DNA from: an uncultured Eubacteriales bacterium
GTDB lineage: Bacteria; Acidobacteriota; Aminicenantia; Aminicenantales; Aminicenantaceae
Length of the DNA: 64,000 nt
Reading direction: 5' to 3'
Assembly (NCBI GenBank): GCA_964440805.1
Contig: CAYTTR010000003.1
Coordinates: 22,888 to 86,887 of the forward strand
Position 1 is the first letter of the stretch. The number at the start of each line of letters is the position of its first letter. Shown in pieces: positions 7,777-37,974 of this stretch. Under the pieces are notes generated by a model. It did not search any database, was not told where the DNA came from, and worked only from the letters and a program-made list of their open reading frames with translations. A program made the translations under genes and the position numbers.

Positions 7777-7800
7777 GAGGGGGACGTTCCCCCTTTTACC
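7777..7800. repeat. palindromic repeat P copy (GGGGGACGTTCCCCC followed by TTTT)
   Basis: ggagggggacgttcccccttttacc. Confidence 0.6.
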
Positions 7801-9712: not shown

Positions 9713-11806
9713 TCATTTCCTGGAGTCTTTCTTTTTTCTTTTTTCCTCAAGCTCGGCCATCAACTTTTCTGCCAGATCAGAAGGAAGCTTGCCGTAACGG
9801 AGAAACTCCATGGTGAATTCAGCTTTCCCCTGGGTAAGGGAACGAAGCACAGTTGAATATCCAAACATTTCACTCAAGGGAACCTCGACATCAATGCGGC
9901 TAAAAATTCCGTCTTCTATTGAACTGATAATTACTCCCCTTCTCTGGTTAAGACTGGCAAAAATATTCCCCGCAAATTCAGAGGGCCCTTCCACCGAAAC
10001 CTTCATTAAGGGTTCCAGAATCTGGGGGCAGGCCTTCCGGTAGGCTTGTTTGAAAGCTTCCCTGGCAGCTATCTGGAAAGCAATATCTGAGGAATCAACC
10101 GGATGATACTGGCCGTCCTCAAGAACAACTCTTACCCCAATAACAGGAAAGCCGGTCAAGTTCCCCTTTTCCAGGGACTGCTGGAATCCCTTGTCACAGG
10201 AAGGAATAAATTCCCGGGGAATCCGGCCTCTTTTGACTTGATTAACAAACTCATATCTTCCTTGTTCAAGAGGCTCCAAATAACCGCTCACTCTGCCGAA
10301 TTGCCCTGCCCCTCCGGTTTGTTTCTTATGAGTATAATCATAATTCGCTCTCCTGGTGATGGCTTCCCTGTAAGCTACCTGGGGCCTGCCTGTTTGGACC
10401 TCAGCCTTGTATTCCCTTTTAATCCTTTCCAAATAGACTTCCAGGTGAAGCTCTCCCATTCCCTGGATTATGGTCTGTTTTGATTCGGGATCAATATAAA
10501 CCCGGAAAGTGGGATCCTCTTTGACAAACCTCTGCAAGGCTTTTGACATCCGGTCGGATGATTTGCTGTCGGCTGCCTCCAAGGCGAAAGAAATTACAGG
10601 ATCAGGCACAAAAATCGAAGAAAGAGTCAGATTATGCCCAGGCTTGATAAAAGTATCACCAGAGACACATTCTATACCAAAAAGAGCCACTATATCACCG
10701 GGGCCGGCCTCTTCAATGTCTTCCATCTTGTCAGCGTGCATTCGGATCAAGCGTCCAACGCGGATATTTTTCTGGGCTCTGGTATTATATAGCTCATCTC
10801 CTTTCCCGAACTTACCCTGATAAACTCGAATGTAGGTCAACTGACCATAGGGAGTATCTTCAAGTTTAAAAGCCAGAGCCACAGTAGGAGCAGCCGGATC
10901 CGGGTAAAGCCTGACTTTTTGTTCTTCCTTGTCCAAATCCGCGGCAAAATTTTCCACTTCTCCCGGATGAGGTAGATAACGGCAGACCGCATCCAGCAAT
11001 GGCTGAACTCCTTTGTTGCGGTAAGCTGAACCCATAAAAACAGGGGTGAGTTTGCGGGCAAGAGTTCCTTTTCTTATGGCTTCGATAATCATCTCCTCAG
11101 TCTCTCTTCCTTCAAGGACTGCTTCCATTAATTCATCCGAAAACATAGAGGCGGCATCGAGAAGAATTTCTCTTTTCCGGGCAGCTTCCTCTTGCAGTTC
11201 AGGCGGGATCTCCTTTTCCCGCACCACTATTCCCTCTTCTCCTTCAAAATACAGGGCTTTCATGGATATAAGATCAACTACTCCTCGGTGTTTGTCTTCC
11301 AGTCCTATGGGAAACTGCATTAGGAGGGCATTATGTCCGAGAGTGTTGGCCAGTTGATCCCGAACCTTATAAGGATTAGCTCCGATCCGGTCACATTTAT
11401 TTATAAAAGCAATTAAAGGCACATTATAGCGCCGGAATTGCCGGTCAACCGTTATACTCTGAGACTGGACTCCTCCTACGGAACAGAGGACCAGAATTCC
11501 TCCATCAAGAACCCTCAAAGCTCTTTCCACTTCTATGGTGAAGTCCACATGACCTGGAGTATCGATGATATTTATCATGTAATCAATCCAGTTGACCGAG
11601 GTAGAAGCTGAAGAAATGGTTATTCCCCTTTCTCTTTCCAGCTCCATGGAATCCATAGTGGCTCCCACTCCGTCTTTTCCCCGGACTTCGTGCATTTTAT
11701 GTATTTTTTTGCAGTAAAATAGTATTCTTTCAGTTAGAGTAGTTTTGCCTGAATCAATATGGGCACTGATTCCAATATTCCTCATTTTTTCAATATCTAT
11801 CGCCAT
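9713..11806 (-). CDS. fusA: translation elongation factor G (paralog, not in the str operon context)
   Basis: 697 aa; [18 protein letters not shown]1 motif, full EF-G domain order; no rpsL/rpsG upstream. Confidence 0.9.
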
Positions 11807-11911
11807 GGGTATAAAAACACCTCCCTGTTCCCTGGGTTCGGAGATTAATCAAACCCTTCGAACGAAGGCTTAATGAGAGACTGAATTATAGCCCAAAATC
11901 AACCCCTATGC

Positions 11912-11946
11912 AAGGGGACGTTCCCCAAGGTACCACCCCTTCCCAA
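11912..11946. repeat. palindromic repeat P variant (GGGGACGTTCCCC AAGGTACCACCCCTTCCC), plus orientation
   Basis: forms an inverted pair with the copy at 12328-12368. Confidence 0.6.
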
Positions 11947-12028
11947 GATCGAAATTAATATTCAATTTTGGTTTATTAAATTCACATGTTCTTTTCTATT
12001 TTTATTCAAGTAAGGTTGAAAAAATTAA

Positions 12029-12283
12029 GGGCATTAGATGTGCCTTCCGCTCTCCTTCGGCGCTTTTTCCGCCTTCTCTCACCGCTCTTCTCGGCAGCTG
12101 CGTAACTCCGCACCATTGTTCAATAAAAATCACTTTATTCTGTGTTCTGCGTTTATAATAGTCTAACCCATTTTTCCTGAGGCGTGCTCAATACATACTC
12201 GCTGTCCGACAAAGTCGGATTCCCCCGAATCGCAGTTCGAGAAGGCGTGCGCCTCAATGTCGCGGAAGGCACATTTAATGCCC
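12029..12283. mobile_element. TIR-bounded roughly 255-bp element (MITE-like or structured ncRNA), copy B, reverse orientation relative to copy A
   Basis: 22-bp terminal inverted repeats gggcattagatgtgccttccgc / gcggaaggcacatttaatgccc; core is homologous to 24183-24389 (blocks GCGACATTGAGGCGC, GGGAATCCGACTTTGTCGGA, GGAGTTACGCAGCTGCCGAGAAGAGCGGTGAGAGAA, GCGCCGAAG) and carries a roughly 60-nt AT-rich insertion. Confidence 0.55.
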
Positions 12284-12327
12284 TCCAAAAAAACATTTCT
12301 TACAAAAAGGTAAATAACGCCTCTCTT

Positions 12328-12368
12328 GGGGAAGGGGTGGTACCTTGGGGAACGTCCCCCCCTTTTTG
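12328..12368. repeat. palindromic repeat P variant, minus orientation (partner of 11912-11946)
   Basis: gggaaggggtggtaccttggggaacgtcccccccttttt. Confidence 0.6.
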
Positions 12369-12419
12369 ACTTTTCTAATTATACTGGATAACATGATGCC
12401 GCAAAGGAAAGGGGAAATA

Positions 12420-13520
12420 ATGAAAACCATTCTTGGCTCCAGACTTCGCCGGGCAAGGGAAGAACTGGGACTTTCTCAAGCTGATCTGGCAAGGAAAATC
12501 AAAATCTCCAACGAGCACATCTGGCACTTAGAACATGGAAAACGAAGCCCCAGTTTGGATGTTCTTACCCGTTTGGCAGAATTTTTCAAAAAAGATATTG
12601 GCTATTTTATAAAAGAAAAGGAGGCTTCTTTTCAACTGCTTTTCCAGGAAAAAACACTGGATAAAAAAACCAAATCTTATCTCCGGAAATTTAAAAAACA
12701 CTGCCAGGATTATTTGCTTCTGGAAGAGCTGACCGGGAACCGCTTGCCTAACGCCCCTCTTTACCATACTCCTGACCCGGAAAAAATGGCTATAGAAGAA
12801 AGACAGCGGCTTGGTTTGGGAAACCATCCGCTAAGAAATGTTTTTTTTCTACTGGAACAACAAAACTTTCATCTTATCCGGCAATGCCTGGGGACAGAAA
12901 GTCAAATAACGGGTATTTTCATTTATTTAAATGATGAAGATGAAGCCTTTGCTCTAATTAATGCTTCGCTATCAGAAGAAAAACAAACTCTGGCCGCAGT
13001 CCATCTCTATGGACATTTCCTCAAAGACCGTCTTGGAGGGCCAATTATTGATAATCCTGATGTTTTTATTGACGAATATCTTGAGCTCTATCATCCAAGA
13101 GAGAAATTCTCCCAGATTTTTACCTCCCGCTTCCTTCTCCCCCGGACATTTCTTAAGGATTTAATTTCCTCTTTCTCTAAGAAAAGTTTTCTGGACTTAG
13201 AAGTTATCCTTTATTTAAAACGTATCACTGGAGTGGAACAACAAGTACTGCTTTCTGCTCTCCAAGAAATGGAAGTATTGACCTCAACTCACGGTAAGGA
13301 TTTAAATAAACTCGATTTAAATAAAGAAGCTGAAAAATTTTTCTCAATTCCAGAGCGGACCGGGCATCCCAAATTGAGAAAAGGACAAATAATAATCTCT
13401 GACCGCTTCTATTTCCTGGCTTGTGGAGCCTTTAGAAAGAAAAAAATCACTCTTGAGGAAACAGCCCAGCTAACCGGGGTAGAGAAAAACAAGATTAGCA
13501 GCTTTTTCCGGAAAAAATAG
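12420..13520 (+). CDS. XRE-family HTH transcriptional regulator with a long (about 300 aa) C-terminal domain, possibly a degenerate ImmA/IrrE-like domain
   Basis: start ATG at 12420 preceded by aaaggaaagggg; HTH LGLSQADLARKIKISNEHIWHLEHGKRSPS; C-terminal HLYGH in place of HExxH; the ORF-track start at 12345 lies inside the repeat. Confidence 0.6.
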   Translation: MKTILGSRLRRAREELGLSQADLARKIKISNEHIWHLEHGKRSPSLDVLTRLAEFFKKDIGYFIKEKEASFQLLFQEKTLDKKTKSYLRKFKKHCQDYLLLEELTGNRLPNAPLYHTPDPEKMAIEERQRLGLGNHPLRNVFFLLEQQNFHLIRQCLGTESQITGIFIYLNDEDEAFALINASLSEEKQTLAAVHLYGHFLKDRLGGPIIDNPDVFIDEYLELYHPREKFSQIFTSRFLLPRTFLKDLISSFSKKSFLDLEVILYLKRITGVEQQVLLSALQEMEVLTSTHGKDLNKLDLNKEAEKFFSIPERTGHPKLRKGQIIISDRFYFLACGAFRKKKITLEETAQLTGVEKNKISSFFRKK

Positions 13521-17230: not shown

Positions 17231-17366
17231 CTATTCAGTCTGTCTGGTCTATTTCGTCTATTCAGCCTATTCGGTGATTCAATTAAATCAATTGGGCGGG
17301 GCGAGATGAGCGAGAAAGGCGAGAAAAGTAAAAAGCGTTAGTTGCGTTTATTGCGTTAGTTGCGTG
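17231..17366. repeat. composite intergenic repeat (9-mer array, GAG-box GGGCGGGGCGAGATGAGCGAGAAAGGCGAGAAAAG, second array GCGTTAGTTGCGTTTATTGCG)
   Basis: homologous modules at 6 other loci. Confidence 0.6.
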
Positions 17367-20582: not shown

Positions 20583-21182
20583 GTGACAACTAAAGAGAGA
20601 GCAGCCAAAATAAAAAAATTTCTTTCCTTCCGTCAATCCGACCTCAGAGTTGTCCTGGAAGATGTAACCAACACCCATAACGCCAGCGCAGTGGTCAGAA
20701 CTTGTGATGCCGCCGCTATCCTATATCTGGACGTTATCTACAACCAGCCATTTGAGCTTCCGGTGAATGAAGCCATTTCCACCAGAGCAGAAAAATGGCT
20801 CCATTTCACTTACTACTCATCTACAGAAGAATGCTTCACTGCTCTCAAAGGCAAAGGATTTAAAATCGCAGCCACATCTCTTGCTCCTGAATCCCAACTT
20901 TATACTGAAATTGACTATACTCAACCCTTGGCTATAGTATTCGGAAATGAGGCCGAAGGCATCTCACCCAGAGCCAGGGCCCTGGCCGATTATTTAATCA
21001 TGATTCCCATGAAAGGCATGGTTCAAAGCCTTAACCTTTCGGTTTCAGCAGGAATTATTCTTTTTGAAGCCCTCAGGCAGCGGTCTATCTTTAGTGACCC
21101 CAAGAAACACTGCCTTCAACCCCAGGAATATGAATATTTTTTAAAAAAGTGGCTCTACCAAAAAAATTATAATAGTAAATAG
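20583..21182 (+). CDS. SpoU/TrmH family RNA 2'-O-methyltransferase (GTG start; the ORF track extends to 20472)
   Basis: VVLEDVTNTHNASAVVRTCDAAAI motif 1; LIMIPMKGMVQSLNLSVSAGIILFE motif 3. Confidence 0.7.
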   Translation: MTTKERAAKIKKFLSFRQSDLRVVLEDVTNTHNASAVVRTCDAAAILYLDVIYNQPFELPVNEAISTRAEKWLHFTYYSSTEECFTALKGKGFKIAATSLAPESQLYTEIDYTQPLAIVFGNEAEGISPRARALADYLIMIPMKGMVQSLNLSVSAGIILFEALRQRSIFSDPKKHCLQPQEYEYFLKKWLYQKNYNSK

Positions 21183-21230
21183 TAAATGGCAAATAGTAAA
21201 TTGATTGAACCATCTTGAAATATGTTGACT

Positions 21231-21318
21231 AAACAGACTGAACAAACCGAATAGACGAAATCAACACAACTAACGCTATAAACGCAATTAACGCAATTAA
21301 CGCTTCTCTCGTCTCGCC
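21231..21318. repeat. composite intergenic repeat (arrays and GAG-box, reverse orientation)
   Basis: aaacagactgaacaaaccgaatagacgaaa...aacgcaattaacgcaattaacgcttctctcgtctcgcc. Confidence 0.6.
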
Positions 21319-21352
21319 AAAATCCACTTTCCTACTGAATCTACACTGTTTT

Positions 21353-21388
21353 CCAGGGAAAAGGGTGTCCCTTTGGGGAACGTCCCTC
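21353..21388. repeat. palindromic repeat P copy (minus orientation) followed by a T-run; candidate bidirectional terminator between SpoU(+) and HtrA(-)
   Basis: ccagggaaaagggtgtccctttggggaacgtccctc then tttttat. Confidence 0.55.
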
Positions 21389-21449: not shown

Positions 21450-23081
21450 TTAGACTCTTATACCCCGGTACATTCTTAACAGAGAATTCAGTTCTCCCTT
21501 AAATTCTTTCTGCTTTTCCAAAAGTTTCCCGTCTCCTTCCTGCGACTTCTTCTTCAGTTCCTCTCTCAGGTTTTTCATTTTTTCCTGGATTTCCCGGAAT
21601 GATTCCTGCTCCCACTGAAGCATTTTTTCGCCTGTGTTCCGGGAATAAAACTTGAAAGATTCCGGAAAAGCCGGGAAATATCTTCCAAATGAGGTTTTTT
21701 CCCGGGTAATTTTTACATCAGCTTTCTTTTTCTTGCGGTCTCTGAGAAATTCAATCTCTATCTTTTCCCCTTCATTCTTGTTCTGGATGATGCGGCTCAA
21801 GGCATCAACAGACTCAACTCTTTTTCCCTCAGCTCCGACAATTACATCACCCACTTTCAATCCGGCCTCATCGGCCGGACTGCCTTTATCGATCCGGCTT
21901 ACTAAAAGCCCAATTCCTTCTTTTACTCCAAAATACTCGGATAACTCTCGGTTCATCTCCTGAAGATAAACTCCAATGTAGTTCCGGCTTCCCAACTGCC
22001 ATCTGCCGCTTCTTGGTCCAAGGGGAAAAGGCTCGAAGGATTCGGGAATTTTAAACAGGCGGGGAAATTTTCTCTCCAATTCATCCCAAATATTCTCTTC
22101 AGTATATTCTCCCAGTTCGACCTCTATTTCTAATTCTTTTCCATGCCTGAGAATTTTCAGTTTAATCACCTGACCGGGTTTTTGCTGGCGAATGAAATCG
22201 GCAAACATCTTTGTCCCGGTAACTTCATATCCATTAACCTGCAAAACAATATCATGTTTTCTCAATCCGCCCTTTTCAGCCGGGGAATCAGGATCAACCT
22301 CCAGTATTTCCACCTCACCTTTTTCATTCTCACCTATTAAAGCTCCCAACCAGCCCCGCTCTACCTTGCCTTTTTCTTTGATCTCTGAGGCCACTCTGAC
22401 CACTACATCAACGGGAACGGCCAAGGCCATCCCGGAGGCAGGAGCCTGAGCGGCACTAAAGACATAGCCTGAACCTACCACTTGTCTTTCTTTGAACTCA
22501 AAGACTACCGGTTGGTTATCATAGTAGATTCCCCTGAGAAGACCAATCATTTTTCCTTGATCATTCACTACCGGGCTGCCGCTTGAACCGGGCACTACCC
22601 AGACATTCAGCCGGAGGCGCTCATCGCCAATAGAACTGACGATGCCCTGGGTAACAGCCGGCCTGTTTTCCGGGGAAACGGAAACAACTCCAATCCAGGA
22701 ACCGGGAGAAATTTCCCGGCTGTCTCCTAATGGAACAGCAGGCAGCTTAGCTTCAGTTTTGATAAGAGCCAGATGAGTCAAGGGGTCCATGCCGGCCAAA
22801 ACAGCCTCAAATCTGTTTCCCTCGGTATCAATAATATGAATTTTTTCATCTCTTGGAGTAATAAGAGCAGTGGTAACAATATATCCTTCCTTATCAAAAA
22901 CCACTCCGGTAGCAATTTTTCTGGTAAAGTTCCTGACTTCAACCCTTACTACAGAAGGAGAGATTTGCTTGAGAATTTCAGGCACATCTTCATCTTTGGG
23001 TAATGAATAGGCCGGGAAAACAGAGATTATAAGAAAACTCAAAATTAGGCTTATAATTACAGCTCCTTTTTGTTTTTGCAT
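21450..23081 (-). CDS. htrA: periplasmic trypsin-like serine endoprotease with two PDZ domains (HtrA/DegP/DegQ family)
   Basis: signal peptide; catalytic GSSGSPVVN; two PDZ segments. Confidence 0.8.
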   Translation of the reverse strand: MQKQKGAVIISLILSFLIISVFPAYSLPKDEDVPEILKQISPSVVRVEVRNFTRKIATGVVFDKEGYIVTTALITPRDEKIHIIDTEGNRFEAVLAGMDPLTHLALIKTEAKLPAVPLGDSREISPGSWIGVVSVSPENRPAVTQGIVSSIGDERLRLNVWVVPGSSGSPVVNDQGKMIGLLRGIYYDNQPVVFEFKERQVVGSGYVFSAAQAPASGMALAVPVDVVVRVASEIKEKGKVERGWLGALIGENEKGEVEILEVDPDSPAEKGGLRKHDIVLQVNGYEVTGTKMFADFIRQQKPGQVIKLKILRHGKELEIEVELGEYTEENIWDELERKFPRLFKIPESFEPFPLGPRSGRWQLGSRNYIGVYLQEMNRELSEYFGVKEGIGLLVSRIDKGSPADEAGLKVGDVIVGAEGKRVESVDALSRIIQNKNEGEKIEIEFLRDRKKKKADVKITREKTSFGRYFPAFPESFKFYSRNTGEKMLQWEQESFREIQEKMKNLREELKKKSQEGDGKLLEKQKEFKGELNSLLRMYRGIRV

Positions 23082-23096
23082 CTTATTCTTTCCTCC

Positions 23097-23492
23097 TTAA
23101 TATTTAACTGGTGTACCGGGACTATCAGAAACCTGCTCCAGAATATATATGGTCGGCGTTTTTTGTCTTTCTCTTCTGAATTCACCATTGTAGGTCACTT
23201 GCTCGGTAATAGGGAATACTCTTTCCCCGCTATATCTCACTTCCGGGTCAAACGGAATGTCAGCTTTTTTGGCATCCGCCTGATCTGTCAGGGGTTGATG
23301 AGGAATGATAAGGACTGAAATTATAAGAAAAGCCAGGATTATTGTCCCGGCGGCTCCAGCCAAAGAAAGCCCGAGAGTGCGGATTCTTTTCCTCTTTATC
23401 TTTCGTTCTATCAACATCCCCCCAACTTGACTCTCGAAATCCGGAGGAGCCTTTACTCGTTTCATACTTTTTAAAAGTTCAATCTCATCCAT
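23097..23492 (-). CDS. putative membrane-anchored anti-sigma factor
   Basis: 131 aa, single TM, overlaps the stop of the upstream ECF sigma gene by 8 nt; assigned by context only. Confidence 0.4.
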   Translation of the reverse strand: MDEIELLKSMKRVKAPPDFESQVGGMLIERKIKRKRIRTLGLSLAGAAGTIILAFLIISVLIIPHQPLTDQADAKKADIPFDPEVRYSGERVFPITEQVTYNGEFRRERQKTPTIYILEQVSDSPGTPVKY

Positions 23493-24105
23493 TTTCCCCT
23501 TCTCCTTCTTTAAAAAAATCCTCCTTATTAGAGAATTTCTCCAATTCTTTTCTTAAATAGTTTCTTCCCCGGCTGATACGGGCCTTGATTGTTCCTACCG
23601 GTACCTTCATAATTTGGGCGATTTCCTCCTGGGAAAAACCCTCCATATCCTTCAGAACAACCGGAATCCGGTAACGCGGGTGAAGGTTATTTAGGGCCCG
23701 GCGAAGAATTCTTATTGAATCTTTCTTTTCCGGTGAATCAAAGGAAGCCTCTTCCTCAATAAAAAAATCCTGTACCTCATCGAAAGAGACAGCAGACATT
23801 TTTCGCTTTTTTTTCAAATCGGTTTTGGCTAAGTTGGCGGCTATGGTGTAAATCCAGGAACTGAAAGGAGCAACCGGCTGGTACTGCTTGGCTTTGAAAT
23901 AAACTCTCATAAATGTCTCCTGGGCCAGCTCCACTGCTCTTTCATAATCCCCGGTGAGCTGCCAGATGAAATTGACCATCCTGTCTTTGTAGGCCCTGAC
24001 GATCTTTCCAAAAGCCGCTTCATCACCATCTTTAATCCGCTCCATCAGTTCTTGTTCATCCATCTCCAATTCCTTGTAACCTTTAAGTCCAGTTTTTCGT
24101 TGCAT
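23485..24105 (-). CDS. ECF-subfamily sigma-70 factor (sigmaE-like)
   Basis: region 2 ...FIWQLTGDYERAVELAQETFMRVY; region 4 HTH EEIAQIMKVPVGTIKARISRGR. Confidence 0.8.
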   Translation of the reverse strand: MQRKTGLKGYKELEMDEQELMERIKDGDEAAFGKIVRAYKDRMVNFIWQLTGDYERAVELAQETFMRVYFKAKQYQPVAPFSSWIYTIAANLAKTDLKKKRKMSAVSFDEVQDFFIEEEASFDSPEKKDSIRILRRALNNLHPRYRIPVVLKDMEGFSQEEIAQIMKVPVGTIKARISRGRNYLRKELEKFSNKEDFFKEGEGENG

Positions 24106-24182
24106 TTTCAGCCCGGAGATAATAAATTCCTTTTTTTTGAAAAATCAATTCTTTTCCCTCCGTTTTGAATGTTTATAATATC

Positions 24183-24389
24183 ACAATAAGAAATCATCAG
24201 ATATGCCCGGAGCGACATTGAGGCGCTAGTCTTCTCGAGCCGCTATTCGAGGGAATCTGATTTCGTCGGACGGCGAGTGCGCATTAAGCTGACGGAATGG
24301 AGTTACGCAGCCGCCGAGAAGAGCGGTGAGAGAATGGCGAAAAAAGCGCCGAAGTAAAGCGGAGGGCATACCTGATGATTTCTTATTGT
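24183..24389. mobile_element. TIR-bounded roughly 207-bp element (MITE-like or structured ncRNA), copy A
   Basis: 25-bp TIRs cacaataagaaatcatcagatatgccc / gggcatacctgatgatttcttattgt (1 mismatch); core homologous to 12029-12283 with compensatory stem changes. Confidence 0.55.
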
Positions 24390-24451
24390 TCAGAATCAAG
24401 TACAATAAAATGGAAAAAGAATCATTCGGGCAAATTGTATTTATAAAAAAA

Positions 24452-24958
24452 TCAGCCCTTCTCCTCAAGTTCAACCAAAATTTTATCAACATCTACCAAC
24501 AGCCCCTCAGAAACATGGACTTTCTTGACTACCCCGTCGATGGAGCATCTCAACTCGTTTTCCATCTTCATGGCTTCAACCACCACTAAGGTTTGATTCT
24601 TTTTAACTTCATCACTGTCTTTAACCAGAATTTTAATAACTTTCCCGGGCATAGGAGCTTTTATCTGCAGTTTATCCGCCGAAGACATTCCCTCATCTTC
24701 GTCAAAAACCTCTTTATCCTCAACCGGCTCCTGAACCAGCCATTGTTCTCCGTTAACATAGCACAGGTATTTGTCATTATCTGAAACAATGTAAACCACC
24801 AGGGCTGAATCTCCCATGACAAGGGAAAGGCAGTTAGGTGAAACCCATTGAACATCTGCCTGAAGAGTTTCTTCACCGAAGCTTGCCAGGTATCCTTTCT
24901 CTGATTTTTCCAGGGAAAGGGTACGAATTTGACCATCCAGCAACAATTCAAAGTCCAT
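24452..24958 (-). CDS. biotin carboxyl carrier protein (standalone biotinyl domain)
   Basis: VVVEAMKMENEL biotinylation motif. Confidence 0.8.
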   Translation of the reverse strand: MDFELLLDGQIRTLSLEKSEKGYLASFGEETLQADVQWVSPNCLSLVMGDSALVVYIVSDNDKYLCYVNGEQWLVQEPVEDKEVFDEDEGMSSADKLQIKAPMPGKVIKILVKDSDEVKKNQTLVVVEAMKMENELRCSIDGVVKKVHVSEGLLVDVDKILVELEEKG

Positions 24959-24959
24959 G

Positions 24960-26468
24960 TTATCTCCCCTTTCCTAAACGCCAGCGACCAAGTTCCTGCC
25001 AGGGGGAAAAAACCTCCTTCACCTCTCCTCGAGAATCTCTGCGTCCCGGTTTCACTGCGGCTGTTTTAAGAGCAGCCGCCAAAAGAGCGAACTTGGCTCC
25101 TTCTTCACTCTTGGCAGCCGGTTTCCATTTTTCAAAATGGCGGTTAATGAAATGGGTGGTTGTTCGGCCTTTGAGAAACTCAGGATGATTAACCACCTGC
25201 TTTAGAAAAAGGACTGTGGTCTGTATACCCAAGATTACATAATCACTTAGAGCCTGAATCATTCTCCGGCAGGCTTTCTCCCGGTTTTCTCCCCAAACAA
25301 TAAGCTTGGCCAGAATGGGATCATAGTAAATAGGTACCTCGAAGCCGCTGTAAACACCACCGTCATGTCTTATTCCCGGGCCGCATGGTTCTTTGTAGAA
25401 AAGTATTTTCCCTGAGGAAGGAAGAAAATTATTGGCCGGGTCCTCAGCATAAATCCGGCATTCAAGGGCATGGCCTCTCTGACTCAGCTCTTCCTGGGAA
25501 AAAGCAAGCTTTTCACCGGCAGCCACCCGGAGCTGCTGATGAACCAGATCAATGCCCGTAGTAAACTCTGTGACCGGATGTTCTACTTGCAGCCTGGCAT
25601 TTACTTCCAAGAAATAAAAGTTTTTATTTTTATCAAGGAGAAATTCCACTGTTCCGGCATTGGTATATCCGGCTGTTTTCATGACTTTTACAGCGGTTGC
25701 GCCCATTTTTTCTCTTAATTCCGGAGTAAGGGCCGGTGATGGAGTCTCTTCCACTATTTTTTGGTGGCGGCGCTGGATGGAACATTCCCTCTCAAAAAGA
25801 TGAACCACATTTCCATGCTGATCAGCCAGAACCTGGAATTCCACATGGCGGGGCTCTTCGATATATTTTTCAAGGTAAACCGATTCATCTCCAAAAGCAG
25901 ATTTAGCTTCTCTCATTCCTCCTTCAAGGGATGACCTGAGGTTTTCTGCCTGATAGATAATCCTCATTCCTTTTCCCCCTCCACCGGCTGAAGCTTTAAT
26001 CATCAAGGGATATCCGATCTTTTCCGCCTCTTTTTCGTATTCTTCAAAGCGCTGCAAGATTCCTTTCATTCCAGGGATTATAGGAACTCCTGCTTTTTCC
26101 ATGGTCTGACGGGAACAAATTTTGTCTCCAACCAGGTCCATTGCCTGGGAATTTGGTCCAATAAAAACAATGCCTTCATCTTCACATAAACGGGCAAAGT
26201 GAGGATTCTCGGCTAAAAAGCCGTAACCTGGATGAATGGCCTTAGCCCCGGTTTTATGGGCAGTGTCAACAATCCGCTCCATGTTCAAATAACTCTCCAG
26301 GGCCGGCGGAGGACCGATACAAACAGCTTCATCGGCTGTCAGGACATGGAGGGCATTCCGGTCCGACTCAGAGAAAACAGCGACCGTCTTGATATCCAGT
26401 TCCCGGCAGGCCTTAATAATTCTAACCGCAATTTCGCCTCTGTTGGCAATCAGGACTTTATCGAACAT
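24960..26468 (-). CDS. biotin carboxylase (ATP-grasp; alpha-subunit function of an acyl-CoA carboxylase)
   Basis: KVLIANRGEIAVRIIKACRELDI N-terminus, ATP-grasp motifs, 502 aa. Confidence 0.9.
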   Translation of the reverse strand: MFDKVLIANRGEIAVRIIKACRELDIKTVAVFSESDRNALHVLTADEAVCIGPPPALESYLNMERIVDTAHKTGAKAIHPGYGFLAENPHFARLCEDEGIVFIGPNSQAMDLVGDKICSRQTMEKAGVPIIPGMKGILQRFEEYEKEAEKIGYPLMIKASAGGGGKGMRIIYQAENLRSSLEGGMREAKSAFGDESVYLEKYIEEPRHVEFQVLADQHGNVVHLFERECSIQRRHQKIVEETPSPALTPELREKMGATAVKVMKTAGYTNAGTVEFLLDKNKNFYFLEVNARLQVEHPVTEFTTGIDLVHQQLRVAAGEKLAFSQEELSQRGHALECRIYAEDPANNFLPSSGKILFYKEPCGPGIRHDGGVYSGFEVPIYYDPILAKLIVWGENREKACRRMIQALSDYVILGIQTTVLFLKQVVNHPEFLKGRTTTHFINRHFEKWKPAAKSEEGAKFALLAAALKTAAVKPGRRDSRGEVKEVFSPWQELGRWRLGKGR

Positions 26469-26488
26469 GATTAACCTCTATTTGTGTT

Positions 26489-27295
26489 TTATTCCGACTC
26501 ATCTCCGGCCCAGAACGGCTTTCTCTTCTCCAGAAAAGCAGCCATTCCCTCTTGGCCTTCACGGCTTACTCTGAGCTGGGCAATCATGCGGGCAGTAAAG
26601 GGTTTGGCTTCTTCCAGACTCATGGCCGGCACCCGAAGAAGGAGTTCCTTGCAGCATGCAATGGCTTCCGGGCCGGAACTCAACAGCAAGTCAACCAATT
26701 CCTTCCCCGCTGATTTTAGCCCGGAAAGGGGAACCACCCGGTTTACAAGACCGATTTCCTTTGCAATATCAGCAGTAATTCTTTTTCCGGTAATAAAATA
26801 TTCCCGGGCCCGGCTTTCTCCGATTTTGCGGACCACATAAGGAGAAATAGCTGCCGGAACCAGTCCAATCTTCACTTCACTCAAGCCGAAGCTGGCACTT
26901 TGTGCTGCAATCGCAATGTCACAGGCTGAAAGAAAACCTGTTCCCCCTCCGATAGCTGCCCCATTCACCAAAGCAATGGTTGGTTTGGAAAGAGTGTAAA
27001 TACGGTGAAGAAGTTCTGCCACCTGAAGCGATTCTTTGAGATTCTGCTCAAAAGAATAGCGGATTATCTCCCGCATCCAGTTGAGGTCTGCTCCGGCACA
27101 GAATGACTTTCCGGCACCGGTCAGCACCACCACTCTTATTTCTTTCTCCATGGCTTCCTGCTGAAAAACCCGGTTCAGTTCTTCAATCATCTGCGCATTG
27201 AAAGCATTGTGGACTTCAGGCCTGTTGAGGATTATTCGCAGAAGCTTTTTTTCTTTTTCTACACAAATTGTGTCTAAGGTCTTTTTAGTATTCAT
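26489..27295 (-). CDS. enoyl-CoA hydratase/isomerase (crotonase; methylglutaconyl-CoA hydratase-like)
   Basis: crotonase fold motifs AAINGAAIGGG / SASFGLSEVKIGL. Confidence 0.8.
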   Translation of the reverse strand: MNTKKTLDTICVEKEKKLLRIILNRPEVHNAFNAQMIEELNRVFQQEAMEKEIRVVVLTGAGKSFCAGADLNWMREIIRYSFEQNLKESLQVAELLHRIYTLSKPTIALVNGAAIGGGTGFLSACDIAIAAQSASFGLSEVKIGLVPAAISPYVVRKIGESRAREYFITGKRITADIAKEIGLVNRVVPLSGLKSAGKELVDLLLSSGPEAIACCKELLLRVPAMSLEEAKPFTARMIAQLRVSREGQEGMAAFLEKRKPFWAGDESE

Positions 27296-27297
27296 CT

Positions 27298-28905
27298 TTA
27301 CATCCTGAAAATACCAACTTTGTAGTCTGGGATGGGAGCGTTAAGGCTCATGGAAATACCCAGGGCTAAGGCTTCCCTTGTTTCCAGCGGATCAAGGATT
27401 CCGTCATCCCATAGTCGGGCAGTGCTGTAGTAAGGGCTGGCTTCATGCTCGTATTTTTCCAGAATCGGTTTCATGAACTGCTTCATTTCTTCTTCGGTCA
27501 TATCCTTGCCTTTGTCTTTCATTCTCTTGACTTTAACCGTAAAGAGGACATTAGCAGCCTGCTCACCGCCCATAACACTTATCCTGGCGTTAGGCCACAT
27601 CCAGAGAAGCCTGGGCCCATAAGCCCGGCCGCACATGGCGTAATTACCAGCTCCATAAGAACCGCCGACGATAACAGTAAATTTGGGAACATCAGCGTTG
27701 GCCACAGCATGAACCAGTTTGGCTCCATCCTTGGCGATTCCTTTGTGTTCATATTCCTTGCCCACAATAAAACCAGTGATGTTCTGCAGAAAAAGAAGAG
27801 GAATTTTCCTCATGGAACAAAGGGTTACAAAGTGAGCCCCTTTCAATGAGCTCTCAGAAAAAAGTACACCGTTGTTGGCCAGGATTCCAACCGGGTAACC
27901 CATAATCCGGGCAAAGCCGCAAACAAGAGTCTGGCCGTAGAGCTCCTTGAATTCCTGAAAGCGGCTGCCGTCAACTAAGCGGGCAATGACTTCCTTGATA
28001 TTAAAAGAACGTCGAAGATCCTTGGGAATAATTCCGTAGAGTTCCTGGGGATCATAATAAGGCTCATCCGGCTCAGTCACATCCAGGGGGAATTTGCGCG
28101 GAGGATCCAAGGTTTCGACAATATTACGGGCAATCTGAAGGGCATGCTCATCATTGAGGGCATAATAGTCTGAAACACCTGATATGCGGCAGTGGACATC
28201 AGCTCCTCCCAGCTCTTCATCGGTAACTTCCTCGCCGGTGGCAGCCTTAACCAAGGGCGGACCGCCGATAAATATAGTTCCCTGGCGCCGGACAATCACG
28301 GTTTCATCACTCATGGCCGGCACATAAGCCCCTCCGGCCGTACAAGAACCCATAACAATTGAAATCTGGGGAACACCGAGAGCTGAAAGCCGGGCTTGAT
28401 CGTAAAATATCCGGCCGAAATGTTCTTTATCGGGAAAAGTGCCTGCCTGGTGCGGTAAAAATATTCCTCCTGAATCTACCAGATAAATGCAAGGCAGGCG
28501 GTTTTCCAAAGCCACTTCCTGAGCCCTGACATGTTTCTTAATGGTCATAGGGAAATAAGTTCCCCCTTTGACAGTGGCATCATTGGCCACCACCAGCACT
28601 TCCCGGCCGTGAACTTCTCCGACTCCGGTTATCATACTGGCAGCCGGAGCCTCATTATCGTACATATCGTAGGCGGCCAGAGGGCTTAATTCCAGAAAGG
28701 GAGTATTTTTATCGAAAAGCTTCTCCAGCCTCTCCCGCACCAGCAGCTTTCCTCTTGATTCATGAAGTTCTCGATACTTGGGGGGGCCGCCTTTTTGGAT
28801 TTTATTTAGGCGGCTTTTATAAGTCTCGACCACCTTTTTGTTTGTTTCAAAATTTTCCCGGAACTCAGGGCTCCGGGTATCAACCTTACTTTCCAGACGA
28901 AACAT
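27298..28905 (-). CDS. acyl-CoA carboxylase carboxyltransferase subunit (methylcrotonyl-CoA / propionyl-CoA carboxylase beta-like)
   Basis: 535 aa; N- and C-terminal carboxyltransferase halves; resembles MccB/LiuB. Confidence 0.85.
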
Positions 28906-29016
28906 ACCGCACTCCTTCTCTTTTTTCTGCGGGAAGTGACCAGATCTGCATCTGGTGCAGCTTCAATCCTTGAATGATTCAGAATAAATCCCGGTCACAT
29001 CCTGGTTATTTATCAA

Positions 29017-29409
29017 TTATTCAGGTACGAATTTATAGCCGTAACAGATAATGCCGGCCTCGCCCTCCTCAAATATCTTGCGAAATTCTATTTTAACCGG
29101 CAGCCCTACCCGCAGTTCATTAAAAGAGCAGTCCACTATTTGAGCCATTACTTTCACTCCATCTTCCAGCTCAACAATTCCCATGGCATAAGGAGTCTGG
29201 TCAACAAATTGGTGCGGAGGAACCCTGATAACGGTATAAGTTAGAACCTTTCCTTTTTCAGCCAGCTTGACGGGGTCAAATTCCTTGGAACCGCAGGCAG
29301 CACAAATTAGGCGGGGCGGGAAATAAATCTGGCCGCAGCGGCGGCATTTTTCGGCCTCCAGCCGGTATCTCTGAGGGATTTCTCTCCAATATTTTGACGG
29401 TGTAGGCAT
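29017..29409 (-). CDS. DUF35 Zn-ribbon/OB-fold protein (partner of archaeal-type thiolase/HMG-CoA synthase complex)
   Basis: CRRCGQIYFPPRLICAACGS Zn-ribbon then OB-fold; adjacent to thiolase and HMGCS. Confidence 0.7.
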   Translation of the reverse strand: MPTPSKYWREIPQRYRLEAEKCRRCGQIYFPPRLICAACGSKEFDPVKLAEKGKVLTYTVIRVPPHQFVDQTPYAMGIVELEDGVKVMAQIVDCSFNELRVGLPVKIEFRKIFEEGEAGIICYGYKFVPE

Positions 29410-29420
29410 GGTTTCCTCCT

Positions 29421-30578
29421 TTACTCTTCCCTTTCTAAGATGTGGACTACTGTACTTCCTCCACTGCCGCCCATATTCTGGGTCATTCCAATCCTGGCAT
29501 TTTTAACCTGGCGGGCTTCAGCCTGGCCGCGGAGCTGTTTGACCACTTCCACTACCTGGGCCGCTCCGGTAGCACCAACTGGATGGCCTTTGGCTTTCAG
29601 GCCACCGCTTGGATTGACCGGAATTTTTCCGTCAAGCGAAGTCAATCTACTCTGGACAGCCGGTCCGGACTGACCTTTTTCAAAAAATCCCAGAGCTTCA
29701 AGGACACATAGTTCAGCAATAGTGAAACAATCGTGGACTTCCACTAGGTCAATATCCTCAGTTTTTCTCCCTGCCATGGCGTAAGCTTGTTTGCCTGCCT
29801 GGTGAGTGGCCTCAAGCCAGGTAATATCCTTCCTCTGGGCTAAGGCAATGGAATCAGTGGCCTGTCCGGTTCCGGTAATTTTTATAACCGGTTTTCTTTT
29901 GGAGCGGACCAAATCGGCCGGGCAAAGAATGACGGCAGCCGCTCCATCTGTAATGGGCGAGCAATCCAGAATACGGAGGGGATCCGCCACCATTACAGAA
30001 TTCAGGACTGCTTCCACCGTCACTTCAAAAGGAAACTGGGCCAATGGATTCCGGGCTCCATTGAAATGATTTTTAACCGCTACCATGGCCAACTGTTCCC
30101 GGGTGGTACCGTATTTTTCCATGTGAGCCCGGGCAATCAATGCATACAGGCCGGGAAAAGTAATGCCGTGGTAGCCCTCATATTCCTGGTCTGCTGCAGT
30201 TCCCAGGGCATAAGTGGCTTCATGGCCGCTAACATCGGTCATTTTTTCAATTCCGCCGGCCAGAACTATATCGCTCATACCCGAAGCAACTTCGATGAAG
30301 CCCTGTCTGACTGCCAGTCCACCTGAGGCGCAGGCTGACTCAACTCTGGAAGCAGGCACAGGTGCCATTCCTAAATAATCAGCCAGAAGAGAGGCTATAT
30401 GTTCCTGGCCCACGAAAAGGCCTGAGGACATGGAGCCGATATACATAGAATCAACTTTATCTACTCCGGCATCATCCAAGGCCAGCAAAGCTGTCTCCAC
30501 AAATATATCCCGGAGGGATTGCTCCCAGAGCTCCCCCCACTTAGCCATCCCGATTCCTAATACAGCTACTTCTCTCAT
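29421..30578 (-). CDS. thiolase (acetyl-CoA C-acetyltransferase, SCP-x-like archaeal-type)
   Basis: thiolase fold with active-site Cys region ESACASGG; the start probably lies at the internal Met (the ORF track extends to 30635). Confidence 0.8.
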
Positions 30579-30588
30579 CTCTTCCTCC

Positions 30589-31635
30589 TCACTCAGCCTT
30601 CCGGATTTTTCTCCGGAACTTGGCATATTCACCATATTCCAGATAATTTTTCCGCGAATCCAGCAAATAACGTGTTTTCAATGCCATTTCCCTTGCTTCG
30701 TTGATTCTTTCGGTTACTTCAAAGACGAATGCATCACTGCCGGCTCCGGAACCATAGGAAACCATCAGGATCTTATCTCCTTCTGCGGCTATATCCAGAG
30801 TGGATGTCAATCCCAAAGGTGAAGAACCGGAATAGGTGTTTCCCAGTTTGTTTACCAGCCAGCCGGGAAGAATCTGTTCTTTTGTAAAGCCTAGCATCTT
30901 ACCTACTCTGAAAGGAAACTTACCGTTGGGTTGATGGAAAATTACATACTGAAGATCCTGAGGCTTCATTCCGGCCTTTTTCAATATTCCTTCCGAAGCT
31001 CCTAAAATATGCTTGAAATAGGCCGGTTCTCCGGTAAAACGGCCTCCGTGCTGGGGATAGTACTGGTATTCCCGTCTCCAAAAATCTGGAGTATCGGTCA
31101 TGAAAGAATATGTTTCCAGGACCTTGGCAATGATTTTTTCCCGGCCGAAAATAAAGGCAGCAGCCCCGGCAGCAGTCGAATATTCCAGAGCATCTCCCGG
31201 AGCTCCCTGGGATGTATCTGCGCCCACTGCCAAGCCGTAATCAACCTCGCCTGCTTTAACCAGACTGTAGGCGACAAACATCCCTTCGGAGCCGGCCTTG
31301 CAGGCAAATTCAAAATCCGCCGTATGGACGTCGGGTGTGGCTCCAATAGCTTCAGCCAGAACTGTTCCGCTCGGTTTAACGGCATAAGGATGAGATTCCG
31401 ACCCTACATAGACAGCTCCAATCTTTAACGGATCAATGCCGGCTCTTTTGAGAGCACTCCGGCTGGCTTCTACCGCCATGGTAATTGTGTCCTGGTCAGG
31501 AGAAGGAACCGATTTTTCTTCCAGCATCAAACCTTTCTTGTAAGAGGGAGCATCTGCTCCCCAGACCTTGGCTATCTCTTCAACCTTAATTCTGTTCCGG
31601 GGAATATAGGCCCCGTAACCAACAATACCAACCAT
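30589..31635 (-). CDS. hydroxymethylglutaryl-CoA synthase (archaeal-type HMGCS)
   Basis: [23 protein letters not shown]... with catalytic Cys region [12 protein letters not shown]. Confidence 0.85.
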
Positions 31636-31823: not shown

Positions 31824-31860
31824 AAGGGGGACGCTCCCCAAAGGGACACCTCTTCCCCTG
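31824..31860. repeat. palindromic repeat P copy (plus orientation)
   Basis: aagggggacgctccccaaagggacacctcttcccctg. Confidence 0.6.
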
Positions 31861-31869
31861 AACAAATTA

Positions 31870-31985
31870 GTTTATTGCGTTTATTGCGTTTATTGCGTTT
31901 ATTGCGTTCATTTAGTTTGTCTGGTTTATCTGGTTTGTCTGGTTTATTTAGTTTAGAAGAAGGGTGAGGCGGGTGAGAAATGATT
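31870..31985. repeat. composite intergenic repeat: 4 x GCGTTTATT, then TAGTTTGTC/TGGTTTATC units, then GAG-like box
   Basis: gtttattgcgtttattgcgtttattgcgtttattgcgttcatttagtttgtctggtttatctggtttgtctggtttatttagttta gaagaagggtgaggcgggtgagaaa. Confidence 0.65.
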
Positions 31986-32109: not shown

Positions 32110-32670
32110 GTGGAAATAGAAGAAACCATAAAAAAATGCCTGAACGGAGACCAAGGAGCCTGGAAAATGATCGTTAATGCCTATTCCCAGAAGATATTCA
32201 GCATGTCCTACCAGTTCACCGGTTCACACCAAGAAGCCGAAGACCTTACCCAGGAAATATTTTTCAAACTCTACTCTTCTTTGAAAAAATATGATTTCCG
32301 CAAAAATTTCTCAGCCTGGCTCCTGACTCTGGCCAAAAATTACCTCATCGACAATTACCGCCGGACAAAATGGGAGAAGAAAAACCGGGATGAGCTCGAT
32401 GAGCGTTTCTTTGAGTCAGCAGAAAGCGAAAAGCCGGAACATAAACTTGAACAACAGGAAACTCAGAAGACGATCTGGAAAGGACTCAATCAGCTTTCCC
32501 CGGATATCCGGCTGGCACTCATCCTTTTTGATATTCAGGGCAAAACCTATGAAGAAACAGCCGAAATCCTGGCTGTCCCGGTTGGCACAATCAAATCCCG
32601 CATTAACCGGGGACGCCTGCAATTGGCCCAGATTTTAAGGGGAACAAGGGAGGTTTGCCATGACTTGTAA
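32110..32670 (+). CDS. ECF-subfamily sigma-70 factor (GTG start)
   Basis: region 2 AEDLTQEIFFKLY; region 4 EETAEILAVPVGTIKSRINRGR. Confidence 0.75.
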   Translation: MEIEETIKKCLNGDQGAWKMIVNAYSQKIFSMSYQFTGSHQEAEDLTQEIFFKLYSSLKKYDFRKNFSAWLLTLAKNYLIDNYRRTKWEKKNRDELDERFFESAESEKPEHKLEQQETQKTIWKGLNQLSPDIRLALILFDIQGKTYEETAEILAVPVGTIKSRINRGRLQLAQILRGTREVCHDL

Positions 32671-33685: not shown

Positions 33686-33910
33686 ATGTCATCTACCAGA
33701 AAAAGAGATAATTTTGCCTGGGGATTAGTCCTGGTTATTCTGGGGCTAATTTTCCTGCTCCATAATATTGATATTAAATTATGGGGTTCAGTAGCCCGTC
33801 TCTGGCCTTTGATCCTCATCGTTTGGGGAGCCTGGAAGCTTTACTACGGCCTTCAGGAGAGAAAAGAGCAAAAGGATTCCCTGACAGAAAACAACAGCGA
33901 AGAACAATGA
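33686..33910 (+). CDS. small two-TM membrane protein (LiaI/DUF5668-like)
   Basis: MSSTRKRDNFAWGLVLVILGLIFLLHN...LWPLILIVWGAWKL. Confidence 0.4.
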   Translation: MSSTRKRDNFAWGLVLVILGLIFLLHNIDIKLWGSVARLWPLILIVWGAWKLYYGLQERKEQKDSLTENNSEEQ

Positions 33911-35262
33911 GAGCCCGAGAAGTAATTCTGCTAGCCTTGCTTCTTGCCGGGGGCATTCTGTTTACCCAAATTTATACCGGCAAACTGGATGTAAGCTGGG
34001 GATTTGACGAATTTCCCTTCTGGCACCTTAAAGAGTTCGAATTCGAGGAAAGAGAAATCATCTCACCTCCTCTACCTCCTGAATTGGAATTATTAAACGC
34101 TCACGGCGAGGTGGAGATTGAAGGCACGGATGATGAACAAATCAATATCATCTTTCTTAAAAAGTTCCGGAGAAAAAATCAAGATGAGGCCGCGGCTGAG
34201 GCTGCCGGCCTCCGCCTATTCGCAAGCAAGAGCAAAGAACGCCTGAAGCTTTCCAGCAACAGGGATGAAGTAAGAAAAAAGAACCTGAAGACCTGCTTCA
34301 AAATCCAAGTCCCTTCATCAATGAAGATCAAAGTGGAAAACTCTTATGGCCTGGTCATGGTGCAAAATGTCCGCGATACAGAAATCAGCAACCCTTACGG
34401 CAAAACAATAGTCTCAGACATTAATGGAACTCTGAACCTAACCAATAAATACAAGAATGTAGAAGTCACCGGAGTTTCTTCTTCATGTCAGATAGAAAGC
34501 CATTACTCAAAGGTTTACCTGAAGGATGTAGCGGGAGAAACAAACATCAGTCATTCCTATGGAACCTTGAACCTGGAAAATCTTTCTGCCGGATTGACAC
34601 TCCAAGGAAGACACAGTGTGGTGGAAGGTTTTAAACTTACCGGTCCAAACCAGATTGAAACAACTTATAAAAAAATCCGCCTTGTTGAAATAGGCCCGAC
34701 AAAACTAATTACTCATAATTCCCCGGTTGAAGTTATTCAAGCCGATGGAGATATTTTTATCGAAAACAGCTACGACAGAGTAAGTCTAAAAAAAATAAGG
34801 GGAAATTTAACCGTCAAAGGAAAATACCTTCGGCTCTCCGGTGCTAATATCAGAGGAGATTTCCTGGATATATCATCATCATACAGGGAAATTGAGCTTT
34901 CCCGCTTCTCTGGACAAACAAAAATTCTTCTTTCTCATGGTGATCTCATTCTTGTTCCTGACTCATTAACTGCTCCCCTTGAAATCAATGGAGATTATGT
35001 CAATATCAGCCTGACCTGGCCGGCCGGAGGAAGATATCCTTTGGAAATCCATAACAAAGGGGGAGAAACCAACTGGTTGCTAAAAGAAAAGGCTTCCTTT
35101 GAAACCTTAAATAACACAACTACCCTCAAAGCCTTCAGTCAGGAAAAAACCCAGCCCTCAATATCCATCTCCACCACCTACGGAACCGTTACTATAAGAG
35201 AAGGGGACGTTCCCCAAAGGGACACCCTTTCCCCTGAAGGAAATAGCTTATCGCTTTATTGA
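33907..35262 (+). CDS. DUF4097-type putative adhesin / beta-helical repeat protein with N-terminal TM (YvlB-like)
   Basis: repeated N-x-Y/G-x-I/V-x-V beta-strand units; start ATG at 33907 overlaps the previous stop; the last 13 codons are encoded by repeat P. Confidence 0.5.
   Translation: MRAREVILLALLLAGGILFTQIYTGKLDVSWGFDEFPFWHLKEFEFEEREIISPPLPPELELLNAHGEVEIEGTDDEQINIIFLKKFRRKNQDEAAAEAAGLRLFASKSKERLKLSSNRDEVRKKNLKTCFKIQVPSSMKIKVENSYGLVMVQNVRDTEISNPYGKTIVSDINGTLNLTNKYKNVEVTGVSSSCQIESHYSKVYLKDVAGETNISHSYGTLNLENLSAGLTLQGRHSVVEGFKLTGPNQIETTYKKIRLVEIGPTKLITHNSPVEVIQADGDIFIENSYDRVSLKKIRGNLTVKGKYLRLSGANIRGDFLDISSSYREIELSRFSGQTKILLSHGDLILVPDSLTAPLEINGDYVNISLTWPAGGRYPLEIHNKGGETNWLLKEKASFETLNNTTTLKAFSQEKTQPSISISTTYGTVTIREGDVPQRDTLSPEGNSLSLY
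35200..35240. repeat. palindromic repeat P, best full copy (plus orientation), embedded in the 3' end of the DUF4097 CDS
   Basis: gaaggggacgttccccaaagggacaccctttcccctgaagg. Confidence 0.65.
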
Positions 35263-35854
35263 GTTTCTTTGGTTGATTTAGTTCATTACATTTAGGGCAA
35301 TCATTTACGAGGAGCAGAGTGAAAGTTCTAAGTGGTCCCAACATACTACAAAGCACTTTGTTAAACACCTTGAGAGCCTCGGTTTTAAAGTAAATCTAGA
35401 ACCGATTTCTCTAGCTGCATGAGTTTCATGTTCTTATTTTCAAGCTAATGGTATGATAAAGTCTCAATTATTTCGGTCAATATTGAAAATTTTCCACCAT
35501 TTCAATCTTATTTTTTAAAACGTGATAAAATTAACCTTTCCCTAAAGGTCAACGTATTTTGTTTATTATCAACAGATTTCTTTATTTCCTTTATTATCAA
35601 TTAGTTACAAAAAAGACCGAATCTTGTGCAATCTGCCATATCTCTCAGATTTTACTTAAAGTTAGGGTCCAAAAACTTGGATTTATCCACAAGTTTTCCA
35701 CATTTTTTGTGAATAACTCTGAACATCACTTTTCTTCTCTTTTTCAGGTTCTCCCCTCTGATAAAAGCTTCCCTTTCCCGTCTATATATTTACTCTTTTG
35801 CCTGCATTTTCACAAAAAAAATATCTGTAGACAAAATGTTTCTTTCTGTTCCTC

Positions 35855-37934: not shown

Positions 37935-37974
37935 AGAAGGGACGTTCCCCAAAAGGACACCCTTTTCCCTGGAC
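37935..37974. repeat. palindromic repeat P copy (plus orientation)
   Basis: gagaagggacgttccccaaaaggacacccttttccctggac. Confidence 0.6.

Follow-up and report, generated by a model that had tools for sequence, protein, structure and literature searches.

A lineage-specific nested palindrome of non-coding DNA lies between the divergent genes of an EF-G-family GTPase and an XRE-family regulator in an uncultured member of the Aminicenantes (Acidobacteriota). It was found in a contiguous stretch of 64,000 nt, hereafter called the window, whose first base is position 1 of all coordinates given below. The feature is real, well delimited and of a familiar kind, that of REP-doublet or mosaic-type intergenic repeats. 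With a probability of roughly 0.55, it is a REP/REPIN(BIME)-like doublet whose spacer is unusually long and carries a separate structured repeat, and it has been gained or lost as a block. REP/REPIN-like biology is thereby documented in Aminicenantes, for which a literature search returned no paper mentioning REP sequences. In addition, the strains compared provide snapshots of palindrome evolution, namely arm homogenisation, slippage deletion of the core and gain or loss of the whole block.

Structure of the P-bounded unit

The unit is bounded by two inverted copies of a short repeat, designated P. The left arm (11914–11944, plus strand) is a long-form P that reads GGGGA-CGT-TCCCC and then AAGG-TACCACC-CCTT, the GGTACC variant of the second hairpin. 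The right arm (12329–12359, minus strand) is also of the long form and has the same sequence in the window strain. The arms are 31 nt each, 100% complementary and separated by 384 nt, and no match to the pair appeared in 100 shuffles of the window. If one gap or mismatch is allowed, the inverted repeat grows to 36 nt (11914–11948 and 12324–12359). Within the 64-kb window, the GGTACC-type arm is found in this pair alone. The original prediction of an inverted P pair with a common GGTACC arm, at 11912–11946 and 12328–12368, was therefore sound, with the limits corrected to 11914 and 12359; the outer limits of 11912 and 12368 were too wide by 2 and 9 nt respectively. The pair had also been said to enclose an element with terminal inverted repeats (TIRs), and a 23-nt inverted repeat does occur within the 384-nt interval.

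The unit proper comprises 433 bp (11914–12346), or 11914–12359 once the right hairpin is counted, and is non-coding. The left arm is followed by an AT-rich spacer (11945–12027), the tail of the left P module, which resembles the decayed T-rich 9-mer tails after other long P copies and contains a 29-nt direct repeat (11954–11982 and 11998–12026). Next comes the inner structured hairpin element, copy B (12028–12284, minus strand), of 257 nt. It is closed by the 23-nt inverted repeat with one mismatch (12028–12050 and 12262–12284), and comprises this closing stem, conserved arms, a small side hairpin and a variable apical region at about 12110–12185. A shorter spacer (12285–12328), the tail of the right P module, leads to the right arm. 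The hairpin GGGGAACGTCCCC at 12347–12359 (plus strand), followed by CCCTTTTT, lies just upstream of the −35 box of the XRE gene and fits the pattern of a terminator, with a stem of only 5 bp and no plus-strand gene upstream. Folded whole as single-stranded DNA, the unit has a predicted energy of −108 kcal/mol (z = −13.3). An independent assembly of a sister strain has the same architecture, and the unit is thus not an assembly artefact.

Flanking genes and promoters

The EF-G-family GTPase gene (9713–11806, minus strand) lies on one side of the unit and the XRE-family HTH regulator gene (12420–13520, plus strand), whose relatives carry the annotation HTH plus ImmA/IrrE peptidase, on the other. 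This divergent gene pair is kept across Aminicenantes. The homologues of the regulator, nearly all from Candidatus Aminicenantes/Acidobacteriota metagenome bins, have 365–367 aa, and their alignment starts at the ATG at 12420. The extension of the open reading frame (ORF) to a TTG at 12345 is therefore spurious, as had been suspected for the upstream part of ORF 12345–13520 and is now borne out for 12345–12419. Similarly, ORF 12184–12369, also predicted to be probably non-coding, has lost its start in the sister strain and is absent in a sister species, and so is not a gene. Two spurious ORF calls are thus removed and the start of the XRE regulator is corrected.

As read by eye, the left arm directly abuts a −35-like TTGCAT of the EF-G gene (11908–11913, minus strand), and the EF-G promoter TTGCA(T/C)-17-TATAAT is conserved in the sister species, with TTGCAC. 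A promoter-like site of the XRE gene, TTGACT-17-TAACAT (12366–12394, plus strand), lies outside the insertion and corresponds to TTTACT...TATTAT in the sister species. The insertion point thus falls precisely between the −35 box of the EF-G promoter and that of the divergent XRE promoter, and both promoters are intact.

The P repeat family and a second doublet

The full form of P is a hairpin GGGGA-CGT-TCCCC, then a second small hairpin (consensus AAAGGG-ACA-CCCTTT), then CCCC. The first hairpin, GGGGACGTTCCCC, has eight matches with at most one mismatch in the 64-kb window, against 0.07 expected by chance. With a diverged copy at 38322–38353 included, the window holds nine copies, seven long with the second hairpin and two short (at 1610 and 7780). 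All are extragenic but for the one at 35203, which shares sequence with the last codons of an ORF. Two of the nine form the doublet described above (site 1), two form another (site 2) and five are single, and some consist only of the 13-nt hairpin. P is thus a short, over-represented, extragenic imperfect palindrome, and has the sequence-level character of a REP.

The second inverted doublet (37938–38353, no strand assigned; arms 37938–37969 and 38322–38353) is located 3' of tRNA-Arg(CCT). It had been predicted at 37935–38355 near this tRNA and is real, although its arms are only about 90% complementary over 21 nt. Its spacer of about 350–360 nt is unrelated to that of site 1, and local alignments between the two cargoes score at noise level. 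A common origin of the site-2 cargo and the inner element was considered and rejected, as one 16-mer in common with a single inner-element allele is accompanied by alignment at noise level otherwise. This exact 16-mer, GGTTAGGCTGGGTCGG, lies at 38035–38050 in the site-2 cargo and at 600–615 of contig L045, in an extra insert of the sister allele of the second inner-element copy (copy A); its surroundings are dissimilar. The site-2 cargo also has a GC-rich hairpin of its own (38016–38128) with arms GAGTCGAGGTTGCCG and CGGCAAGATCGACTC 83 nt apart. Rfam has no match for this hairpin, which may be another small structured element.

Several other observations concern single P copies and their surroundings. 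Intergenic tandem arrays of a 9-nt unit (GTTTATTGC or GCGTTAATT) are found at 17335–17365, 21255–21303, 31870–31955, 42006–42044, 42183–42210, 44071–44109 and 54683–54719, with a degenerate array at 35240–35290. They often lie directly after a long P copy (21387, 31827 and 35203), and the array beside P at 21178–21363 differs in length and sequence in the sister strain L045. The long P copy at 35203–35234 overlaps the last 20 or so codons of ORF 33781–35262 (493 aa). The homologue of this ORF has 439 aa in L046 and L051, so the ORF in the window may continue into P at its 3' end or be lengthened by it. The short hairpin at 7780–7792 is located upstream of tRNA-Arg(CCG), where a sister-species contig (L038, about 1625–1650) has a hairpin of different sequence (AAGGGG...CCCTTT, then a T run). 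Hence the short P copies may be conserved terminator-like hairpins of an ordinary kind and not members of a mobile family.

Comparison with related genomes

The original prediction was to be checked at empty sites in related genomes, and these were found. In L038, from a sister species whose XRE regulator is 70% identical and whose gene order is fully syntenic, the EF-G/XRE spacer measures 178 nt and holds a single 13-nt hairpin; the 433 bp are missing. In more distant Aminicenantes (L039–L044), the spacer is 138–153 nt and free of P. The flanks of L038 and the window align well, and the junction reads ...TGCAAG-AGGGGGAACGTTCC-TCTTTACT... in L038 and ...TGCAAG-[11914...12346]-GGGGAACGTCCCCCCCTTTTTGACT... 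in the window. The 433 extra bases start with base 1 of the left P and stop within the right P. Of the whole unit, only the hairpin at 12347–12359 is matched in L038 (GGGGGAACGTTCC). At site 2, contig L048 of the same sister species lacks the whole 37938–38353 block between the 3' side of tRNA-Arg(CCT) and a TPR gene. Thus, the P-bounded unit has been shown to behave as one presence/absence block at both sites.

Direct repeats flanking the outer P copies, which had also been proposed as a check, are absent from the boundaries of both sites. No target-site duplication is present, the flanks being GCAAG|...|CCCTT at the first unit and GGAGA|...|TTAAA at the second. The junction GCAAG|GGGGAACGT is what excision of the whole unit would leave. 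The single hairpin of L038 could instead be a pre-existing target and not an excision scar, and gain of the unit is argued for only by the more distant outgroups. Among the genomes compared there was no intermediate state, so that capture and movement as a composite leaves the same picture as stepwise assembly.

Between the sister strain L037 (MAG GCA_048622495.1) and the window, 44 of about 3,560 aligned positions differ (1.2%). L037 carries a 180-nt deletion (12070–12249, no strand assigned) between short CGCC/GCC direct repeats, and with it the inner element has lost its conserved core. The inner hairpin has thus been shown to lose sequence by slippage, and the tolerance of this loss indicates that copy B is dispensable. 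In the right P arm, L037 has five substitutions within 15 nt (12340–12354), by which a canonical second hairpin, GGGTGTCCCTTT, replaces the GGTACC version. Since these differences are clustered, the 31/31 arm match in the window reflects recent homogenisation and not ancient conservation, and it is due to conversion between the arms or to ectopic conversion in L037. The CCCCTTCCC variant is nevertheless common to both arms, L037 included, which suggests that the arms have a common history.

Short-read contigs of close relatives break in or beside the repeat units. L047 (Logan SRR7048220) starts in the site-2 cargo, and L038 ends 186 nt after the XRE gene, which is consistent with repeats fragmenting assemblies. 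Repeat-bearing intergenic regions are thus hot spots of variation as well as breakpoints of metagenome contigs.

The inner element

A second, short-form copy of the inner element, copy A, is located at 24212–24377. Its better-folding strand is the plus strand, opposite in orientation to copy B, it lacks about 76 central nt relative to copy B, and it has no flanking P. Exact-word scans identified relatives on two contigs of one MAG (L001 and L002) and on metagenome contigs L017 and L021, with duplicates L022 and L026. In the metagenome scan with 19-mers, four of 33 matches were true and the others were chance matches within genes. Viral contigs gave no true match for the inner core or for P, and a distant blastn search of plasmid and phage collections with the inner element gave none. 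Similarly, Rfam, whose families include 6S, SRP, riboswitches, ribozymes and HEARO, returned nothing above noise for copies A and B, the second doublet and five related loci, whether searched with the gathering threshold or with a permissive setting (E up to 10). The family ranges in size from 170 to 330 nt and has a hairpin or three-way-junction shape. It is independent of P, as copy A has none nearby and the element also occurs on other Aminicenantes contigs. Paralogues within a genome are 77–81% identical, which marks them as old copies and not the product of a recent burst.

The conserved part of the element is its interior, including an invariant 22-mer, TTCTCTCACCGCTCTTCTCGGC (plus strand of copy B). 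The terminal stems vary between copies with compensating changes. The element, which had been described as bounded by TIRs, is thus not a typical TIR transposon. In the minus-strand reading, the consensus fold of seven copies has 46 pairs with 96% of the cells paired. Double-sided changes affect 13 pairs, against 6.6 ± 1.3 in shuffles (none of 500 reaching this number) and 2–3 in slid controls, in a set of seven copies of which four are closely related. One-sided changes are nearly all from C-G to U-G in the minus-strand reading, and one U-G pair is invariant. Transition mismatches favour the minus strand of the window by 24 to 7, counts that are dominated by the four related copies. The fold z-scores of the two strands are equal (−8.3 and −8.2) and the strand is purine-rich, so that the bias is partly one of base composition. 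In L002, a longer hairpin takes the place of the side hairpin, and the length of the apical region varies among copies. In the aligned copies, the inner element has a conserved, covarying fold with strand-specific G-U pairs.

The inner element probably acts as a small structured RNA, or else as a hairpin of single-stranded DNA, the minus strand being the one that is read. A U-rich run, UUAAUUUUUUC, follows the closing stem of copy B in the minus-strand reading, no consensus promoter was found upstream of copy B on that strand, and a TATAAT, read by eye, immediately precedes copy A on the strand that folds better. The neighbours of the element are unrelated genes (MutS, FadL-like, ParA-like, FecCD, ThiD, ECF sigma and XRE), and no conserved protein partner (reverse transcriptase, TnpB or transposase) was found at the loci examined. 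Readings as a retron, an omega-RNA or a cis-regulatory leader are counted against by these unrelated housekeeping neighbours. A small coding sequence was also rejected, because a 7-codon ORF in copy A is not kept in other copies.

The MAG that contains L001 and L002 (CAZIDF01 contigs) is labelled 'uncultured Eubacteriales bacterium', and shares the inner element with contigs that encode Aminicenantes-like proteins. This label had prompted the idea of transfer across phyla, which was dropped: the cluster of a neighbouring protein on L017 is named Aminicenantes, and the MAG has a FadL-like outer-membrane protein. On these two grounds the inner family is treated as Aminicenantes-wide, and the 'Eubacteriales' label of this MAG is probably wrong.

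It is rather doubtful that the inner element is an undescribed, phylum-restricted, multi-copy structured RNA, with a rod of about 170–330 nt and a side hairpin, a variable apical domain and one strand with 22 invariant nt, perhaps ferried as cargo by REP-like doublets. If so, a REPIN-type element would be a vehicle for functional non-coding genes and not an empty hairpin. The element, being absent from Rfam, is in either case a candidate for RNA-family curation.

Origin of the unit

On the favoured reading, the P hairpins form, as an inverted pair, a REPIN/BIME-type doublet. Its spacer holds the AT-rich P tails and one copy of a different, older structured repeat that is present in several Aminicenantes lineages. 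When single-stranded, the unit would fold as one long hairpin, and its gain or loss as a block would come from a process that targets the P hairpins and makes no target duplication. The likeliest agents would be an HUH/Y1 enzyme (RAYT or IS200-like) supplied in trans, or replication slippage stimulated by the palindrome. Where a cognate RAYT (Y1/HUH transposase, Pfam PF01797) exists, it is typically flanked by REPs; no RAYT/IS200-like or other transposase was detected among 20 ORFs of the 64-kb window tested in Pfam. The original prediction, in which a composite mobile unit had captured the inner element, is upheld in part. Block presence and absence at two sites agree with it, whereas the lack of target duplication, of a second copy of the composite or of its AT-rich spacers in the window, and of a transposase does not. 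Only two doublets have been seen, with arms 100% and about 90% matched.

The locus may instead have been assembled stepwise, an origin that is on the unlikely side but a serious rival to block movement. The inner element would then be a stand-alone small RNA gene, either the first to arrive or a newcomer at an existing P site, and the P copies independent REP insertions serving as hairpin terminators or stabilisers, and nothing would have moved as a composite. The existence of the inner family without P, both as copy A and in other Aminicenantes, speaks for such an origin, and the covariation suggests a functional fold. The putative gene has the U-rich run UUAAUUUUUUC after its closing stem in the minus-strand reading, but copy B has no convincing minus-strand promoter upstream. 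The right hairpin with CCCTTTTT scores as terminator-like and a short hairpin is already at the site in L038; even so, three separate events would be required in a spacer that is otherwise 140–180 nt. Also against independent insertion are the absence of both P doublets as whole blocks in the sister species and the CCCCTTCCC variant that the arms have in common even in L037.

Part of the same evidence has been read in two further ways. The GGGGAACGTCCCC hairpin might be an operator of the XRE gene or a terminator/insulator, with the left arm an inverted duplication made by template switching. XRE-family HTH regulators bind palindromes, and the hairpin is the only part conserved in L038, where it contains a perfect 10-bp palindrome, GGAACGTTCC, between the divergent −35 boxes. 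Its occurrence at eight unrelated intergenic sites and its absence in distant relatives with the EF-G/XRE pair make this origin quite improbable, and the second arm, the cargo and the second doublet would go unexplained. Only the right-hand 13-nt hairpin, being older than the unit or left behind by its loss, might act as an operator or terminator. Movement by cut and paste, with P as the TIR of a DDE transposase and the inner element as a captured passenger (a MITE or composite transposon), is very improbable. The absence of target-site duplication at both units and of a transposase among the tested ORFs weighs against it, as do the prevalence of single P copies, some of only the 13-nt hairpin, and the want of a further composite copy in the window. 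The perfect 31-nt terminal inverted repeats that would recommend it owe their identity to strain-specific homogenisation. Block presence and absence at two sites is as expected for such elements, but near-identical sister copies are absent, the cargoes being unrelated and the inner paralogues 77% identical.

Similarity to known intergenic repeats

The REPIN/BIME-like doublet favoured here has its closest counterparts in Escherichia coli and Pseudomonas. Like P, the repeats of these systems are short, extragenic, imperfect palindromes in many copies, and they form inverted doublets that fold as one long hairpin with compensating arm changes. REPINs resemble site 1 in being gained or lost as a unit without target duplication, with an asymmetric 13-nt remnant in the case of site 1, and BIMEs resemble it in having a spacer that is a mosaic with other motifs. 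The excision footprints of REPINs in Pseudomonas are asymmetric remnants, and compensatory changes are frequent (Bertels and Rainey, 2011; PMC3116915). The P units differ from REPINs and BIMEs in that the spacer is 350–384 nt, three to five times longer than the usual 60–110 nt or so, and carries a structured repeat. P also has two adjacent small hairpins, unlike a REP, and its host is an uncultured member of the Aminicenantes (Acidobacteriota).

For the inner element, the nearest comparison is with ERIC/IRU sequences. These are enterobacterial intergenic palindromes with units of 127 bp, in which internal deletions or insertions of about 70 bp give variants. Both are long imperfect palindromes with few, diverged, intergenic copies, and both come in short and long forms set apart by an internal block of about 70–76 nt. 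The inner element has no sequence similarity to ERIC/IRU, however, and is distinguished by its side hairpin, its conserved internal loops with covariation, its 22-nt invariant strand and its variable termini around a conserved interior.

MITEs, of which the Correia/NEMIS elements of Neisseria are examples, share with the unit a small size, non-coding content, inverted-repeat boundaries, intergenic positions by promoters and presence/absence polymorphism. In contrast, the unit has neither target-site duplication nor near-identical sister copies, and the termini of the inner element are not its conserved part.

The copy A locus

Variation between strains is also seen around copy A. A tract of about 500 bp (24164–24650; L045 320–750) is about 20% divergent between strains, against about 1% in the rest of the locus, and covers the 3' end of a biotin-carrier gene and the entire copy A. 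In the sister strain the allele is full-length and has a central region of its own. Its closing stem differs at no fewer than six positions, and the other arm compensates for these changes. This shows that orthologous copies keep the hairpin while the sequence changes. The tract is probably a recombinational replacement from a diverged lineage with the element at the same site.

Copy A also lies at one border of a 7.4-kb block (24452–31635), and P with a 9-mer array (31827–31955) lies at the other. The block contains seven genes (biotin carboxyl carrier, biotin carboxylase and others) between two ECF-sigma clusters (23485–24105 and 32110–32670), which in L046 and L051–L053 are adjacent and divergent, 230–290 nt apart. 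Another small tract, within the gene of an HtrA-like protease (22064–22163), has 24 substitutions per 100 nt relative to L045, against a background of 0–5 per 100 nt, and is probably also the result of recombination.
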